Source: a virus (lineage: Duplodnaviria; Caudoviricetes). From it: 34,735 bases of DNA. The notes beneath the pieces were generated by a model. It did no database searches. It saw only the letters and a list, made by a program, of their open reading frames with translations, and had not been told where the DNA came from. This document shows, one piece after another, positions 264 to 7,426 of this stretch (within the stretch, counting starts at the first letter, position 1; every line of letters starts with the position of its first letter). Position numbers and translations under genes: made by a program. The stretch lies in the IMG/VR virus record IMGVR_UViG_3300011334_000294, positions 1-34,735 of that record. One strand, given 5' to 3'.

Positions 264-330
264 TTCAGGGTTGGCGTTGCTCCGCTGGCCTGATTAAACC
301 CCCGGCGTCCTCACTCCGCCGGGGGTTTTT
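264..330 (+). ncRNA. putative two-hairpin trans-acting antisense sRNA
   Basis: Hairpin 1 at 265-293 (loop TTGCTC; G-U pairs form only on the + strand). Hairpin 2 at 296-328 (12-bp stem, loop TCCTCACTC) followed by a T run. Both loops are complementary to several translation initiation regions. Confidence 0.7.
296..330. terminator. bidirectional intrinsic terminator between convergent operons (also the sRNA 3' hairpin)
   Basis: AAACCCCCGGCG-tcctcactc-CGCCGGGGGTTT followed by TT. Confidence 0.85.
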
Positions 331-829
331 ATTTGTCAGAACCGAATCTCATCGTCGGCCCAGTCGTAAATATCCCACCCGAAGTTATCGAACAGGAATT
401 GGTGCAGGGGCATTGCCCCTTCTCCCGTATCTCCAACCCACGGGCTTCCAGTGCGGCGCGCAAACGGCCCACAAGGTCTTTGCGGAGGAGGTCTGCGTAT
501 TCAGCCTTAACCGAATCATACGCGCCGACATCTATATCGGCCAACAGATCAACCAGCGGGTCAGGCTTGGGCTTGGGGATGATGAAGCGGTCAAAGCCTT
601 CCCATCCTTCTTGGCGGTAGAGATCGCCCGCGAAGAAAGCGGCTTCATCGCTCACCTCTTGCTTAAAGTCAGCGAGTTCCTGCTTGGTGGCTTCGTGCTG
701 TTCGATGGCGCGGCATAGTGCTTCGGTGTATGGGGAAACCTCGCGGCGCACTGCGCGTTTGTCGCTTAGGTTGCGTTCGGCCAGCACTTCGCGCACCAGC
801 GCCAAGGCTTTTGCTTCAATGTCTGTCAT
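329..829 (-). CDS. hypothetical early protein (MTDIEAKALALV...)
   Basis: RBS AAGGAG; ATGA overlap with the upstream stop. The last ~27 aa may be a read-through extension over the 25-aa ORF. Confidence 0.7.
   Translation of the reverse strand: MTDIEAKALALVREVLAERNLSDKRAVRREVSPYTEALCRAIEQHEATKQELADFKQEVSDEAAFFAGDLYRQEGWEGFDRFIIPKPKPDPLVDLLADIDVGAYDSVKAEYADLLRKDLVGRLRAALEARGLEIREKGQCPCTNSCSITSGGIFTTGPTMRFGSDK
336..413 (-). CDS. 25-aa acidic/aromatic peptide MPLHQFLFDNFGWDIYDWADDEIRF
   Basis: Translated by hand. RBS GAGAAGGGG lies directly upstream and matches the junction style of other genes in this operon. Confidence 0.55.
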   Translation of the reverse strand: MPLHQFLFDNFGWDIYDWADDEIRF

Positions 830-1023
830 TTGCTTTGCTCCTTCTCGCGCACTTGGCGCGTTATCAGTGTGTGGTCGTTCATTGCTTGCCACCGCTTCGG
901 TGTGGCTGTCTGGGCCAGCACTTCAGCCTCTCGCTGCGTCCGTGCCGAAACGCGAACAAGGCCGCGATGCTGCGCGGTGCGGGTGCGTATGACTTCGACT
1001 TCGTAGATGGTGTAGGCAAACAT
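826..1023 (-). CDS. hypothetical protein, 65 aa
   Basis: Tiles the operon; stop overlaps the next start. Confidence 0.65.
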   Translation of the reverse strand: MFAYTIYEVEVIRTRTAQHRGLVRVSARTQREAEVLAQTATPKRWQAMNDHTLITRQVREKEQSK

Positions 1024-1028
1024 CTGTT

Positions 1029-1214
1029 TTACTCTTTCAGCGCCTTTTCAGCGTCTTCGATCAATTCAATGGGCGGCCACCGCAGATAGGACACATGGTC
1101 TTTGCCTATCACACCCAGAAACTCCAGATATTCCATCAAGCGGTAGGCTAAGGTCGCTTCCGCCCGTTCGGCGTATCGTTCGGGCAGTGCGAGTTCATCA
1201 TCATCATCGGTCAT
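1029..1214 (-). CDS. hypothetical protein, 61 aa (MTDDDDELALPERY...)
   Basis: RBS AAGGA; ATGA overlap. Confidence 0.7.
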   Translation of the reverse strand: MTDDDDELALPERYAERAEATLAYRLMEYLEFLGVIGKDHVSYLRWPPIELIEDAEKALKE

Positions 1215-1603
1215 GCTGCTAGTTTCCTTTCGCATGGGTTGCATATTTCGTCTGTCGTGCGCCTGAACAGGCGGCAGCGCGGGCATTTGTCGCCGAGGGC
1301 AGGGAACCACATCGCAGCAACGCGTGGCAGCTCCGGATCGGGACGCTCGGCCTCATGCGCTGCTGGCGGAAACTTGTCGCCCATGACGATGCACACGCCT
1401 TCAATGCCGCTGGTCTTGCACATCGCAGCCATATCGGAATTGCGGGCGAACAACCCTGCCGTGGTGGGGTCGTCGGTATACAGCATGATACTGCTATCCT
1501 CTTGCTCCGTCACACGCCCAAGGCGGCGCTGTTCTTCGCCAGCCAGCAATGACGCGCGTCTGGCTAGGCGCATGACTGCGCCCCACTCGCCTATATCAGT
1601 CAT
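1211..1603 (-). CDS. stand-alone protein resembling the IleRS C-terminal domain, with an FPG/IleRS-type zinc finger
   Basis: W..V.R..R...A.E..R, D.A..C.TS.IE, P.VA...A.G.KCPRC-x10-CNPC follow the type 1 IleRS C-terminus as I recall it. RBS GAGGGG. Confidence 0.7.
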   Translation of the reverse strand: MTDIGEWGAVMRLARRASLLAGEEQRRLGRVTEQEDSSIMLYTDDPTTAGLFARNSDMAAMCKTSGIEGVCIVMGDKFPPAAHEAERPDPELPRVAAMWFPALGDKCPRCRLFRRTTDEICNPCERKLAA

Positions 1604-1866
1604 TTGCTCTGCCCCTCTGTGTCGTGCAGCACTTCCACACGCCATTTCAAATCGGCATAGCCGCGCTTCCCGCCGTTGCCGTCTGCGAAGGGTTTAGCTG
1701 CTTCAATCCGTCTGCCTTCGCTTTCGGCTTCATGCTGCGTATTAAATCCGTCAAACAGCGTAAACTTGCGCGCGTCATGTCCGCCGCGATATTCGCAGAC
1801 AAGGGCATACGGCGTCCCTAACTTAACAAGCGTTTCGCGTGTCACTTGACGTTCTGTGGCTTTCAT
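1600..1866 (-). CDS. hypothetical protein, 88 aa (MKATERQ...)
   Basis: RBS GAGG; TAATG coupling. Confidence 0.7.
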   Translation of the reverse strand: MKATERQVTRETLVKLGTPYALVCEYRGGHDARKFTLFDGFNTQHEAESEGRRIEAAKPFADGNGGKRGYADLKWRVEVLHDTEGQSK

Positions 1867-2051
1867 TATCTTAACCTCGTTATGAACGTGACGCCTTCCA
1901 CAGTGCGGCATTTAAACATCTTTCCGTTGCGTATGCCGTATTGGCTCACGTTGCGGCTGGTGCGCTTTACATCGCCTTTCTTGGTGGCTGGCATGGTGGC
2001 GACTTCGCCGACCTCTAGCGTTCCCATTGGGTAAATCATTGGTCTTGGCAT
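1866..2051 (-). CDS. small basic phage protein, possibly nucleic-acid binding
   Basis: YP...LEVGE...G..F..R...G...TR pattern common in small phage proteins. RBS AAGGAG. Confidence 0.7.
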   Translation of the reverse strand: MPRPMIYPMGTLEVGEVATMPATKKGDVKRTSRNVSQYGIRNGKMFKCRTVEGVTFITRLR

Positions 2052-2185
2052 TTGGCTTGCTCCTTTTCATGTGTTGCGCGGCGTTCCGCGAATGTCTTGC
2101 CGTCTGCGCCCCGTAGCGGCCATGCGCTGTCGGATGAGACGCGGTGCTTGCGCCCCATAGGGGCGGCTTGTTGTGGTTTAATCAT
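2036..2185 (-). CDS. hypothetical protein, 49 aa (MIKPQQAAPMGRKHRV...)
   Basis: Translated by hand; RBS AAGGA; fills the operon gap. Confidence 0.6.
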   Translation of the reverse strand: MIKPQQAAPMGRKHRVSSDSAWPLRGADGKTFAERRATHEKEQAKCQDQ

Positions 2186-2196
2186 GGGTCTGTCCT

Positions 2197-2541
2197 TTAG
2201 ATTTCTATTTGCGTTGCTGGCTTGGCGCGTTTGTCCATCATGCGATTGAGCCAGTATTGCTTTTCTTCGCCTGTGGCGCGTGCTGCATGGTATTTGAACA
2301 ACGCTAGGGCTAGGTCGTCGTAACCTGTCCGCTTGTGCGTCACTATTAGCGGTGACGGCATCATGGCGGCTAGGTCGGTGCGTCTTGGGCGCTCTCGGCC
2401 CTTGCGTGATAGCGTCCAGTCAATGTCCTTGACTGTGAGGCGCATATCGAATTCGCGGTTTACATGGTGCATCACAGCCGTTTTATCGGTTATGTAGGTG
2501 CATAAGTGCAGGATGCGCTTGCGGACGGCATATTCTATCAT
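2197..2541 (-). CDS. hypothetical protein, 114 aa
   Basis: ATGA coupling within the operon. Confidence 0.7.
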   Translation of the reverse strand: MIEYAVRKRILHLCTYITDKTAVMHHVNREFDMRLTVKDIDWTLSRKGRERPRRTDLAAMMPSPLIVTHKRTGYDDLALALFKYHAARATGEEKQYWLNRMMDKRAKPATQIEI

Positions 2542-2738
2542 GGCCGGGCTTTCTTTACATATTTGCCTGACTTAGGGTCGCGCAAGACTGCGTGACGTTT
2601 CCAGAATAGCAGTTCCTTAGTGTCGCGTGTCCATGCGGATTGCCATTTGTCGCCGCGCTTGACGGCTTCCCACAACAGAAAGGCGGTAAACAGTTGCGCG
2701 GCTATCATTAGCGCGATGATGATTTCGTATTGGTTCAT
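2538..2738 (-). CDS. hypothetical membrane-anchored protein, 66 aa
   Basis: N-terminal hydrophobic helix; C-terminal RDPKSGKY; RBS GAGGA. Confidence 0.7.
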   Translation of the reverse strand: MNQYEIIIALMIAAQLFTAFLLWEAVKRGDKWQSAWTRDTKELLFWKRHAVLRDPKSGKYVKKARP

Positions 2739-2741
2739 TGG

Positions 2742-2801
2742 TTAATCCTCTAATAATAAGGTTAATAGGAATAGGGCGGCTCCAGCGATAACCGCTATCA
2801 T
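2742..2801 (-). CDS. 19-aa hydrophobic micropeptide MIAVIAGAALFLLTLLLED
   Basis: ATG overlaps the upstream TGA and the ORF exactly fills the intergenic gap. Confidence 0.55.
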   Translation of the reverse strand: MIAVIAGAALFLLTLLLED

Positions 2802-3010
2802 TCTGCTATATCGTCCCGTAGGGCGTTATTCTCGGCCACTAGGCGGTCGTATAGCGTCTGCAAGTGCTCTAGCTCTTCTTCGACGCTCACCAACTCGCGT
2901 AGGCGTTCTGCCAGCACAAGGATTAAATCGTCGCCGTTGTCGCGTTCGCGCCCCATGTTGATTAATTCGCTGTCCGATAACATGCGTAGGTAGTTTCGAT
3001 CAAAAGTCAT
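2798..3010 (-). CDS. hypothetical coiled-coil protein, 70 aa
   Basis: RBS GGAG; heptad-like Leu/Glu pattern. Confidence 0.7.
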   Translation of the reverse strand: MTFDRNYLRMLSDSELINMGRERDNGDDLILVLAERLRELVSVEEELEHLQTLYDRLVAENNALRDDIAE

Positions 3011-3027
3011 GTTAATCTCCGTTGTGG

Positions 3028-3192
3028 TTATGTGAAGCGCGCGATTTTGTCGCGCTGTTCAATTAGAAATTCCAGCACTGTGTCAAATTCAGCAAAGTCG
3101 GTTAGCGCGATATCATGCACCTGTCCGCTGTCGATTAGGTCGCACAGGTCAAAATAGATTTCCTGCAATGTTGTTTTCTCTTTGTCTGTCAT
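3028..3192 (-). CDS. acidic hypothetical protein, 54 aa (MTDKEKTTLQEIYFDL...)
   Basis: RBS AAGGGG; D/E-rich. Confidence 0.65.
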   Translation of the reverse strand: MTDKEKTTLQEIYFDLCDLIDSGQVHDIALTDFAEFDTVLEFLIEQRDKIARFT

Positions 3193-3193
3193 T

Positions 3194-3391
3194 TCATGCC
3201 CCTTGTGCTTTTGAAATCGCGCCTTTGATGATTGCGCGAATATAGTTGTAGGGATCAGTGCCATCGGCATTAGGCGCTAGGTAGGCGTCAACGTCATGCA
3301 ATGCTTGCAATAGGTCAGGCGCGGCATCGCGCAGCATTTTATCGCGCTTGCGGCGCTCCTGCGCGGCGGCTTCATAGTCAAATGGTGGCAT
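3194..3391 (-). CDS. hypothetical protein with an AAPDLL...AI.KA.G motif
   Basis: Common phage early-protein motif; RBS GGGAG. Confidence 0.75.
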   Translation of the reverse strand: MPPFDYEAAAQERRKRDKMLRDAAPDLLQALHDVDAYLAPNADGTDPYNYIRAIIKGAISKAQGA

Positions 3392-3489
3392 TATGCTCCC
3401 TTCACTGTTTTAGCGATTGCGTAGATCGATAGGGCGCCAACGCCCCAAAAGAACATCTCGGCTAGGGCGTGAATGATAGTTGCTGTCAT
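3391..3489 (-). CDS. 32-aa single-TM peptide MTATIIHALAEMFFWGVGALSIYAIAKTVKGA
   Basis: Translated by hand; RBS GGAGAGG; coupled at both ends. Confidence 0.65.
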   Translation of the reverse strand: MTATIIHALAEMFFWGVGALSIYAIAKTVKGA

Positions 3490-3719
3490 GCGTCCTCTCC
3501 CTCTTCCCATTCAGTCCAAAATATTTGGATATCGCCGATTTCGTCGTCGTCGTCTTTATTGCCGATATAAAATTCTGCAAAGTCTTCGGGCGTGACGTTC
3601 TCGTGTAGGCAGTGGTCACTGCAATAATGCTCGTTTGCGCCCTCAATGACGTAGCCCTCGTTCATGCCAGCGCCGCACTCGTCGCACATGTGAGCATATT
3701 TGATCCCGTCGATAATCAT
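3486..3719 (-). CDS. acidic Zn-binding protein, 77 aa
   Basis: CDEC...YCSDHC; very D/E-rich. Confidence 0.75.
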   Translation of the reverse strand: MIIDGIKYAHMCDECGAGMNEGYVIEGANEHYCSDHCLHENVTPEDFAEFYIGNKDDDDEIGDIQIFWTEWEEGEDA

Positions 3720-3985
3720 GCGTCCTCTCCATCCATCATGTCGGCGTGATGTTCTGCCAGCGCGTCCCAGTCGACGCTGTTGAGGTCAAGCATATCCCAG
3801 ATGAAGCCGGCTGTTGTGCTATCGCGTCCAATTAGGTCGTGAACATACTCTTCCACCATGTCGCGGCAATATTCCGCCGTGACGTTAACGCCGTTCTCTG
3901 TATCGTCGGCCCAAGTATCGCCAAACCATAGGTTGACTGTCCAAGTGGCGGCATTGCGCCATCCGTTGCAAGTATTGTCTGTCAT
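3716..3985 (-). CDS. acidic conserved phage early protein, 89 aa
   Basis: NGW.N..TW...LW and ..VDW..LA motifs; RBS AGGAG. Confidence 0.8.
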   Translation of the reverse strand: MTDNTCNGWRNAATWTVNLWFGDTWADDTENGVNVTAEYCRDMVEEYVHDLIGRDSTTAGFIWDMLDLNSVDWDALAEHHADMMDGEDA

Positions 3986-4050
3986 AGTTTCTCACTCCTA
4001 TTTGGCACTAGCGCCATCCTCGGCGCGGATTGCTCCGCGCTCCGGTGGTG
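3986..4050 (-). promoter_or_regulatory. structured leader carrying both sRNA target motifs
   Basis: GCGCGGA-GCAA-TCCGCGC hairpin, TGGCG-CTAG-TGCCA hairpin, and ATAG-GAGTGAGAAA-CTAT hairpin overlapping the ATG. Confidence 0.6.
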
Positions 4051-4329
4051 TTAGGCGTAGCGTTTCGCCTTATGTTGTGCGGCTAACTCACGCTTGAATT
4101 GCTTAGTGTAGACGCCGTTAAAATGGCGCAATGCTTGGAATAGCCTATCGACCTTAAACTTGGCGGCTTGCCAGCGCGGGTCGGCTTTGACGCTATCGGG
4201 CGTTAGGTTCATGCAGCGCGGCGCATCGCCAGCTAACTTATCTGTTAGCGCGTTAAGCGCATCGGTTGCATCACTCAATTCGGCATTAAGCGCATCGCGC
4301 TGTTGCGTGGCTGTTATAAAGTCAATCAT
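4051..4329 (-). CDS. hypothetical protein, 92 aa
   Basis: LTPDSVK...F..LR.FN motif; RBS AGGAG. Confidence 0.75.
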   Translation of the reverse strand: MIDFITATQQRDALNAELSDATDALNALTDKLAGDAPRCMNLTPDSVKADPRWQAAKFKVDRLFQALRHFNGVYTKQFKRELAAQHKAKRYA

Positions 4330-4541
4330 GCTACGGCGCTCCTAAATGCGTCTATAACGTCTGCGCCATTGCCAAGCGTAAAGACTTGAACGCGGCAATC
4401 GGTGCACCCGTGAATGTCTGTCAGTTGCGCGATAACGCGTTGCGCTTGCGCCATGCTGGCAATGCCAGCCGTTTCGGACACTAGCAAAGTTTCGTCGTCG
4501 CTATGCCGCGGCTTGCCCCAAATGATATATTCTTTGTTCAT
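4326..4541 (-). CDS. hypothetical protein, 71 aa
   Basis: RBS AGGGG; ATGA coupling to the next gene. Confidence 0.7.
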   Translation of the reverse strand: MNKEYIIWGKPRHSDDETLLVSETAGIASMAQAQRVIAQLTDIHGCTDCRVQVFTLGNGADVIDAFRSAVA

Positions 4542-4551
4542 GGTATCGCCC

Positions 4552-4725
4552 CTATAGGTAAACTGGACCAGTGATGTGCGCGTTAGTTAGTCGGCGCACT
4601 AGGTATATCTGCGATAGTTTGCGTAGCGCCATGAACGATTGCACGGCGGCAAAAACGTCCCGTCCATGTTCAACCGAATAGCACGGGCCTAACTTACCCA
4701 TGTAGTGTATTATATATGCGTTCAT
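4552..4725 (-). CDS. first gene of the leftward operon, 57 aa (MNAYIIHYMGKLG...)
   Basis: Translated by hand; RBS GAGGAG. Confidence 0.6.
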   Translation of the reverse strand: MNAYIIHYMGKLGPCYSVEHGRDVFAAVQSFMALRKLSQIYLVRRLTNAHITGPVYL

Positions 4726-5466: not shown

Positions 5467-5967
5467 ATGACTTTCTACTCACTGCCATTTACACCTGAGC
5501 GGACGCAAGCCACCGAGGCGCGGCTGGAGGCAATCTATAAAGCTGCCAAGTACGGGCTTAAGGGCGACAGTCTGGCGATGGCGGCTGGATTGACCCCGCG
5601 GCAGTTCCGCGTGCTGGCCGACGCAGACCCGCTGGTCGAGATGGCCGAAGCCAAAGGGCGCAGCGAAGGTGAATATATGGCGGCTAAGACGCTGCACGAC
5701 GCAGCGGCTGATGGCGACGCTAAGGTCGCGCTGGAAATACTTAAGCACCAGCACGGCTGGGTAGCCAAGCAACAGATCGACGTGAACATCGACCAACAGA
5801 TAAGCATTACAGGCGCGCTGGAAAAAGCACAGTCGCGCGTCATCGAGGGGTTGTACACTGACGTGACGCCCCGCCTAGAGGATAACACACATGCAGCAGC
5901 CGATATATTCAGCGCAAGACGAGATGGAATGGATGGCGAGGCTGTGGTCGCCCGCACTGAAGGATGA
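5467..5967 (+). CDS. terS: terminase small subunit
   Basis: N-terminal HTH-like region, helical core, position directly before terL. Confidence 0.75.
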   Translation: MTFYSLPFTPERTQATEARLEAIYKAAKYGLKGDSLAMAAGLTPRQFRVLADADPLVEMAEAKGRSEGEYMAAKTLHDAAADGDAKVALEILKHQHGWVAKQQIDVNIDQQISITGALEKAQSRVIEGLYTDVTPRLEDNTHAAADIFSARRDGMDGEAVVARTEG

Positions 5968-7426
5968 CCCCCTAGCGTTTGTGCTATATACATTTCCGTG
6001 GGGCCAAGCAGGCACACCGCTGGAACATTTCCCCGGCCCGCGTAAATGGCAGCGGCAGATACTTTCCGATCTGCGCGACCACATCAAAGAGAACAGCGGC
6101 AAGGTTGACTTCGACACATTCCGTGAGTCAGTGGCGTCAGGACGCGGTATCGGTAAGTCTGCACTAGTGTCATGGCTGGTGATATGGATGCTTTCTAGCC
6201 GCATCGGCTCGACCACCATCGTGTCGGCTAACTCTGAGGCGCAGCTACGCAGCGTCACATGGGCAGAAATTACCAAGTGGCTGGCGATGTCGTTGAACAG
6301 CCACTGGTTCGAGATAGCTGCCACACGCATCATGCCAGCCAAGTGGCTGACCGAACTGGTCGAGCGCGACCTCAAGAAAGGCACGCGCTACTGGTCAGTC
6401 GAAGGCCGGCTGTGGTCAGAAGAGAACCCTGACGCATACGCAGGGGTTCACAACTTCGACGGTGTGATGCTGATCTTCGACGAAGCCAGCGGTATACCTG
6501 ACAGCATCTGGTCGGTCAGCGACGGTTTTTTCACGGAGAATACGCCGCACCGCTTCCATCTGGCCTTCTCCAACCCGCGGCGCAACACTGGCTATTTCTA
6601 CGAGACGTTCCATAGCAAACGGGCGTTCTGGCGCACGCGCACAATCGACGCACGCGATGTCGAGGGTACAGACAAAAACCTGTATCAGCGCATCATCGAC
6701 GAGTACGGGCCAGACAGCTACCAAGCCAGCGTCGAAGTCTACGGTAACTTTCCCTCAGAAGGCGATGATCAGTTCATCGGCAGCAATCTGGTCGATGACG
6801 CCATGAAGCGTCCACCTATCAAGGATGACAGCGCACCCATCGTCATAGGTGTGGACCCGGCACGTTTCGGGGCGGACGCTACCGTCATCGCCATACGGCA
6901 GGGCCGTGACATCTTGGAACTGCGGCGACACCGCGGCGCGGACACTATGGAAGTGGCCGGCTACGTCATCGACGCCATAGAGCAGTTCAAGCCTGCACTG
7001 GTCTGCATAGACGAAGGCGGGCTAGGCGCAGGCGTCGTGGACCGACTGAAGGAACAGCGGTACAAGATACGCGGCGTGAACTTCGGCAATAAGGCTAAGA
7101 ACCAGATCATGTGGGGTAACAAGCGCGCAGAGATGTGGGGTTCCATGCGAGATTGGCTCAAGACGGCGCACATCCCATCGGATCGCTTCCTGAAGACCGA
7201 CCTCATCAGCCCGCGCACCAAGCCTGACAGCAAGGGGACGCTGTTCCTTGAAAGCAAGAAAGATATGAAGTCCCGTGGACTGGCGTCACCTGACGCAGCG
7301 GACGCCATAGCGGTGACATTTGCCTTTCCTGTGGCATCTAAAGACCCACGACAAGGACGCGTTGACAGACGCGCCTCAAGCGGGTATTCTCCCGCTGGAT
7401 ATTCTACATCTTGGATGGGCAGCTAG
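5891..7426 (+). CDS. terL: terminase large subunit
   Basis: Walker A SGRGIGKS, Walker B LIFDEA, SNP coupling motif, nuclease IGVDPA and SPDAADA. Confidence 0.95.
   Translation: MQQPIYSAQDEMEWMARLWSPALKDDPLAFVLYTFPWGQAGTPLEHFPGPRKWQRQILSDLRDHIKENSGKVDFDTFRESVASGRGIGKSALVSWLVIWMLSSRIGSTTIVSANSEAQLRSVTWAEITKWLAMSLNSHWFEIAATRIMPAKWLTELVERDLKKGTRYWSVEGRLWSEENPDAYAGVHNFDGVMLIFDEASGIPDSIWSVSDGFFTENTPHRFHLAFSNPRRNTGYFYETFHSKRAFWRTRTIDARDVEGTDKNLYQRIIDEYGPDSYQASVEVYGNFPSEGDDQFIGSNLVDDAMKRPPIKDDSAPIVIGVDPARFGADATVIAIRQGRDILELRRHRGADTMEVAGYVIDAIEQFKPALVCIDEGGLGAGVVDRLKEQRYKIRGVNFGNKAKNQIMWGNKRAEMWGSMRDWLKTAHIPSDRFLKTDLISPRTKPDSKGTLFLESKKDMKSRGLASPDAADAIAVTFAFPVASKDPRQGRVDRRASSGYSPAGYSTSWMGS

Follow-up and report, generated by a model that had tools for sequence, protein, structure and literature searches.

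A phage gene for a free-standing homologue of the ARD2 and zinc-finger domains that end type-1 isoleucyl-tRNA synthetase

The stretch of DNA analysed here (the window, 34,735 nucleotides; IMG/VR record IMGVR_UViG_3300011334_000294) is a 34.7-kb phage record that is 93% complete and whose genes include a terminase, a P22-like coat protein and a PolA-type polymerase. Between the end of the primase gene and the terminase genes lies a leftward cluster of small mosaic ORFs (329..4725, minus strand), presumed to be an early region. One of these ORFs, at 1211..1603 on the minus strand, encodes a 130-aa protein, P0001, which profile, structure and dN/dS evidence identifies as a free-standing homologue of the ARD2 and ZBD domains of type-1 isoleucyl-tRNA synthetase (IleRS1). 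The protein and the motifs quoted in an earlier sequence-only reading are real, being the translation of this ORF. A Shine-Dalgarno-like GAGGGG is found at 1612..1617 (minus strand), with the start of the gene 8 nt further on, and ATGA overlaps join the gene to both neighbours, its start overlapping the upstream stop. That the gene is early is presumed from its position alone. There were no tRNA genes in the window, the promoter and terminator counts equalled those of shuffled controls, and the Rfam scan gave no match of note. ATA accounted for 23 of the 68 Ile codons in the 16 small leftward genes (window 329-4725), compared with 56 of 388 in the long ORFs. The window terminase (5891-7426) had matches in ~3400 IMG/VR stretches and only two GenBank phages at more than 60% identity, and by its terminase matches the phage belongs to a large, barely cultured group.

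When searched as a single sequence, P0001 gave no IleRS match in Pfam, PDB, PHROGs or NCBIfam and no defence match in PADLOC. Forty-four relatives, 98-165 aa long and sharing 47-91% identity, were found among 79 candidates. With a profile of 43 family sequences, the top five PDB rows were all IleRS1 chains (E 3e-4), and the match was collinear, with profile positions 4-133 running against IleRS1 residues 794-916 end to end in the P. megaterium and S. aureus enzymes. A wider family alignment raised the IleRS1 match to E 1e-7, and when a 27-row family alignment was compared with 30 IleRS1 C-termini in hhalign, the probability was 99.8% over 125 columns, indicating that the similarity is collinear and not confined to the CxxC pairs. 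The ESM Atlas result agreed with the IleRS1 identity. Among 1.84 billion representatives searched, the 20 that scored below 1e-10 were all family members; 176 scored below 1e-3, and most of the others inspected were IleRS ends. A distant group of four (P0058, P0060, P0082 and P0186) joined the family at 98.9%. The 53 longer matches were IleRS or IleRS fragments by Pfam, the best long matches all being IleRS, and none of the 53 was fused to another domain, which is weak evidence (7993 candidates scored). No homologue was found in 50,697 GenBank phage records, and BFVD held no phage stand-alone copy, its best rows being giant-virus IleRS (E 0.08-0.09). Relatives were encoded by four of eight candidate stretches of genome contigs. 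Two database copies, P0039 and P0044, looked frameshifted or truncated (111 and 98 aa). At L011:4740-5378, a locus whose contig is also that of L038, the IleRS-tail gene and the 88-aa gene upstream of it form a single reading frame of 212 aa. We take this fusion to be a small deletion or assembly artefact of a single contig; it is the likely explanation for the 88-aa neighbour being inside the 224-member P0002 cluster, which therefore overstates the family size.

The AlphaFold model of P0001 had a pLDDT of 92.9 and contained helices at residues 4-27, 46-54 and 58-61 and strands at residues 37-43, 66-72 and 95-101. In Foldseek, ranks 1-7 for this model were all IleRS1, with a TM of 0.67 to 1qu2, and VIA-align against 8c9e 792-916 gave Z 9.8 and rmsd 3.4 with 118 residues aligned. 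The predicted fold is thus that of the IleRS1 tail and not a different one, and the fold, together with the hhalign result, bears out the proposed homology to the type-1 C-terminus. Residues 4-101 (1301..1594, minus strand) form an ARD2 (C-terminal junction)-like alpha/beta domain in the model, and structure comparison also matched this part to the C-terminal domains of IleRS2 and ValRS. Profile and residue counts place a treble-clef zinc finger (ZBD), with C107-C110 and C121-C124, at 1217..1294 (minus strand). PF06827 (zf-FPG_IleRS) was matched by 23 of 43 members at E≤0.5, with P0001 itself below the Pfam model, and PF08264 was not among the listed Pfam matches of the 43 members. The type-2 IleRS C-terminus has the layout ARD2-INS-ARD3, whereas P0001 has a zinc finger instead of ARD3, and IleRS2 matches span only residues 1-104. 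The helical anticodon-binding domain ARD1 is absent, the match beginning at IleRS residue ~794. P0001 is confirmed as a stand-alone protein descended from the two domains that close type-1 IleRS, ARD2 plus the zinc finger ZBD; this naming follows PMC13752280 in its accessible part.

The IleRS1 tails used for comparison were those of S. aureus (1FFY/1QU2), P. megaterium (8C9E) and H. pylori (8WNF). P0001 resembles them in ~125 collinear residues, the predicted fold, the four cysteines, Arg888 and the ExxR helix. Unlike IleRS1, it is free-standing, the catalytic core, the editing domain, ARD1 and Leu7 all being absent, and it further differs from the tail in that Trp890 is mostly Arg in the family, the IG-SLEA loop is changed, the YTDDP and FP..E.R..PR motifs are new, and identity to the solved chains is 16-20%. 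It is not an IleRS but a new free-standing variant of the IleRS1 tail.

To compare residues, we counted 50 family rows and 156 IleRS rows, the latter chosen because they resemble the family, a selection that inflates the shared conservation. The E23-x-x-R26 motif at the end of helix 1 (1526..1537, minus strand) is common to P0001 and IleRS1, with E23 in 44 and R/K26 in 45 of the 50 family rows, and E in 152 and R in 154 of the 156 IleRS rows. Also kept from IleRS1 are R15 (49/50 family rows), A21, S65, G104 and K106. The zinc cysteines C107 and C110 were present in all 50 family rows and C121 and C124 in 49, and R109, at the S. aureus Arg888 position, was invariant (50/50). The IleRS residues lost in the family are V18, L22, G32, S34, A37, I63 and Trp890, G32 and S34 lying in the IG-SLEA loop. 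R111 replaces Trp890, this position being Arg in P0001 and 41 of 50 family rows; Trp was seen in seven family rows, all deep branches, versus 152 of 156 IleRS rows. In the second CxxC, P0001 has Pro where IleRS has Arg.

The family has gained T43-D45-P46, E68, F78, E84, R87 and R94. The family-specific YTDDP motif covers residues 42-46 (1466..1480, minus strand; 46-50 of 50 family rows per column), and T43, D45 and P46 occur in 12, 20 and 6% of IleRS rows, respectively. A second family-specific element, the loop and hairpin F78-P79...E84-A85-x-R87...P93-R94 (1322..1372, minus strand), was found in 43-49 of 50 family rows, with F78, E84, R87 and R94 in only 0-13% of IleRS rows. Among 38 well-conserved columns, 24 were family-specific and 14 were shared with IleRS, which points to a new surface; judged by strand order in the model, they probably lie together at the far end of the sheet, opposite the zinc finger. 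The protein is acidic, with a net charge of -2 in P0001 and a median of -4 in the family, the same as in IleRS tails.

PMC11685878 describes how the ZBD of S. aureus IleRS reads base 34 only: the Arg888 main chain reads G34, and the base is stacked with Leu7 on one side and Trp890 on the other. Contacts to A35 and the D-stem are made by ARD1 (PMC13752280; bioRxiv 2026.02.03.703510). The earlier claim that this region contacts the tRNA-Ile anticodon was therefore overstated: reading of base 34 by the ZBD stands for S. aureus IleRS (PMC11685878), but A35 and the D-stem belong to ARD1 (PMC13752280), and in P0001 ARD1 and Leu7 are absent and Trp890 is Arg. Judged by its residues, P0001 holds only part of the IleRS tRNA-reading apparatus, and with these losses it may not bind tRNA-Ile specifically. 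The G34 pocket of ARD3 consists of Q961/R964/L969 (bioRxiv 2026.02.03.703510, accessible part), and the ARD2-like part of P0001 matched 8c8u 943-1032. E23/R26/I31 in P0001 are spaced like this pocket of ARD3, a homologue of ARD2; by this analogy helix 1 (R15, E23, R26) may still face RNA, as may the zinc finger.

Whether the gene could be a remnant of a host synthetase gene was judged from domain content, selection and phylogeny. PF00133, the catalytic HUP domain with HIGH/KMSKS, was found in 14 of 14 control genomes and in none of four phage records (93-100% complete), among them that of the window, in agreement with the earlier statement that the catalytic domain is missing. For 19 distinct close copies, dN/dS relative to the window copy was 0.03-0.21 (median 0.08), and for two distant, saturated copies it was 0.21-0.30, all pairs sharing the window sequence and hence not being independent. 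A dN/dS of ~0.08 among phage homologues, as had been proposed for checking, indicates a stand-alone gene that is under purifying selection and whose function is maintained. The ~50 divergent relatives group in a single clade that excludes IleRS: the 18 family rows of a 40-row tree were one side of a branch at 99/94 support, and in a 154-row quick tree the family was again one side of a branch, weakly (support 41). That the gene is one half of a split ileS, or a recent, decaying or mis-assembled piece of the host's ileS, has next to no probability. It is intact with its own start signals, has a dN/dS of ~0.08, is carried by 28 close IMG/VR loci, belongs to one clade at 99/94 support and has no PF00133 beside it in 4/4 phage records; clade, dN/dS and PF00133 absence refute the fragment and split-gene readings alike for this gene.

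Carriage of the gene was examined in loci matched by terminase, namely the best 80 of ~3400 stretches, 36 of which show the whole region. It was present in 3 of these 36 related phages, and in 2 of 12 at ≥93% terminase identity, patchy carriage as expected of a conditional accessory gene. G001, a temperate-type phage of 63 kb with RecT and a repressor with an S24 domain, shares no other gene with the window; its copy lies two genes away from the repressor and immediately follows the gene next to it. The L064 copy sits beside a Lar-type gene, among methylases, and the L063 copy, on a 2-kb stretch, is near a DUF968 gene. The family occurs in at least two unrelated phage backbones, showing that it has moved between unrelated phages. 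No partner gene was fixed across the contexts seen, and no tRNA-Ile or tRNA-repair gene was seen beside the family gene in the contexts viewed, which cover a minority of the divergent members and none of the deep ones that keep Trp; viral scans with sub-alignments returned only close relatives, and the P0058 scan found none. G001 has an initiator-like CAT tRNA and a tRNA-Arg(TCT) and no tRNA-Ile. The CAT tRNA (L097:883-959) has a C1-A72 mismatch as in the initiator, but its anticodon stem lacks the three basal G-C pairs. At L064:6886-7086, in a phage-like, methylase-rich region, lies a gene with an R67-type dihydrofolate reductase domain (PF06442, E 4e-20).

The patchy accessory pattern would also suit a protein decoy, in which P0001 mimics the IleRS tail to bind a host protein that recognises IleRS or the IleRS-tRNA complex, such as the sensor or effector of a defence system or an enzyme that modifies tRNA. 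The new near-invariant charged motifs could form a protein interface for this, and the G34-stacking Trp is lost in most family members. However, a mimic should track the host sequence, yet the family is one long-diverged clade apart from sampled IleRS, and surface residues that IleRS keeps are changed in it. We know of no defence that recognises IleRS, and we regard a decoy as unlikely. Similarly improbable, in our judgement, is that the fold has been exapted and reused apart from tRNA, binding other RNA, DNA or protein via the new motifs. The preponderance of family-specific columns (24 versus 14 shared), the lack of a fixed neighbour gene and of a link to tRNA genes or codon use are in its favour, whereas the helix-1 Arg/Glu and the zinc-finger Arg are kept family-wide, down to ~21% identity.

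Codon use showed no link to gene carriage, either in the window ORFs or between carrier and non-carrier terminases. This bears on another suggestion of the sequence-only reading, that the protein sequesters tRNA-Ile and so throttles or redirects host translation. An early-type position is compatible with it, and a non-catalytic binder would compete with IleRS; but the phage itself uses Ile codons (4.9% of codons in 17 long ORFs; ATA 56/388), and the ATA shares of the terminases are alike (carriers 40/128, non-carriers 105/305). Sequestration is disfavoured by these results and is very unlikely.

The start of P0001 coincides exactly with the ARD2 boundary and W7 is retained (36/50 family rows), as might be the case for a synthetase modifier that docks on the host IleRS body and replaces the native tail. 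Such a modifier would change or block wobble reading, tuning tRNA charging under starvation. Dominant-negative IleRS fragments are known from the 1990s literature. A phage protein that modifies a synthetase is also known. A described example is T4 Vs, which acts on ValRS in this way and is required in minimal medium (PMC13716836, accessible part). Like P0001, it is encoded by a small phage gene; it is dispensable, acts at tRNA charging and is conditionally needed. Vs is described there as a modifier of a host enzyme, whereas P0001-IleRS binding is hypothetical, and the two are likened by description, not by sequence. Docking would require a covalently attached native domain to be displaced, the tail of the only sphingomonad IleRS in the analysis is far shorter, and several IleRS hydrophobic positions (V18, L22, I63) are lost, so that we consider this role quite unlikely. 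As a small protein, P0001 provides a parallel to T4 Vs that can be tested, the role of Vs itself not yet being known.

The phage answers to tRNA attack known so far are spare tRNAs and repair enzymes. We tentatively propose that P0001 is an early accessory factor that caps host tRNA anticodon loops against tRNA-cutting defences, while recognising that this may well prove wrong. The protein would bind zinc. The Trp-to-Arg change and the loss of ARD1 would relax or alter its tRNA choice, and therefore the target need not be tRNA-Ile alone; the new invariant motifs may lend stability to the free domain or serve to bind another partner. The benefit would be conditional, arising in hosts that attack, or run short of, tRNA, which fits strong selection combined with patchy presence. 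The fold and the residues kept from IleRS1 speak for a cap, as do, indirectly, the patchy carriage and the neighbourhoods of distant copies (the Lar-type gene and methylases in L064, the repressor region in G001). Against a cap stand the loss of most tRNA-Ile contacts, the acidic protein and the excess of family-specific over shared columns (24 versus 14), and the Arg/Glu residues shared by the family and IleRS may be structural instead. In the open-licence literature, we found no report of a defence cutting tRNA-Ile. Anticodon-attacking defences and phage counter-measures are established, as set out in the accessible part of PMC11555353. The phage tRNAs that counter retron-Eco7 and PrrC in that account resemble the purpose proposed for P0001, namely keeping tRNA usable; they replace the tRNA, whereas P0001 would be a protein cap, encoded in a window without a tRNA gene. 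If the cap is true, a protein made from a synthetase tail would be a third phage route against tRNA attack, and would indicate a defence whose tRNA target is missing from those listed so far. A bolder version, possible but doubtful, is that phages have repeatedly captured the wobble-reading tail of IleRS and made it tRNA-shielding. The P0001 family would then be an old, rewired case whose wobble pocket, changed from Trp to Arg, shields one particular tRNA against a still undescribed defence by which freshwater Alphaproteobacteria cut anticodons, or which swaps into host IleRS and changes which tRNA gets isoleucine.

The open-licence literature yielded no account of an IleRS tail encoded by itself in a phage. 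AlaX, YbaK and Trbp111 are free-standing synthetase-derived proteins. Those covered in the accessible part of a review (PMC9437257) are similar to P0001 in having a synthetase domain as their own gene, but they are cellular and mostly catalytic or editing domains, and SbzA is the sole IleRS paralogue named there. P0001 offers a natural stand-alone ARD2+ZBD, predicted to be stable, for studying the IleRS1 tail by itself. Non-canonical roles of the ZBD are left open in the accessible part of PMC13752280.

The IleRS likeness had also been taken as a hint of an alphaproteobacterial host, but it fixes no such donor: the 40-row tree did not join the family to Alphaproteobacteria, and this grouping was not rejected either (p-AU 0.37). 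The Sphingopyxis IleRS, the only sphingomonad IleRS examined, has a short tail and scored near the bottom against the family profile. Other genes lean modestly to an alphaproteobacterial host. The best matches of the endolysin were Caulobacter and Sphingopyxis phages (69% and 66%), with gammaproteobacterial phages tied close behind, one G001 protein matched only a Sphingomonas record, and the G001 CAT tRNA was 96% like Azospirillum and Thalassospira tRNAs. In the Sphingopyxis indica ileS end (L191), ARD2 was markedly shortened, and the Methylobacterium and Sinorhizobium IleRS tails were without three of the four zinc cysteines.
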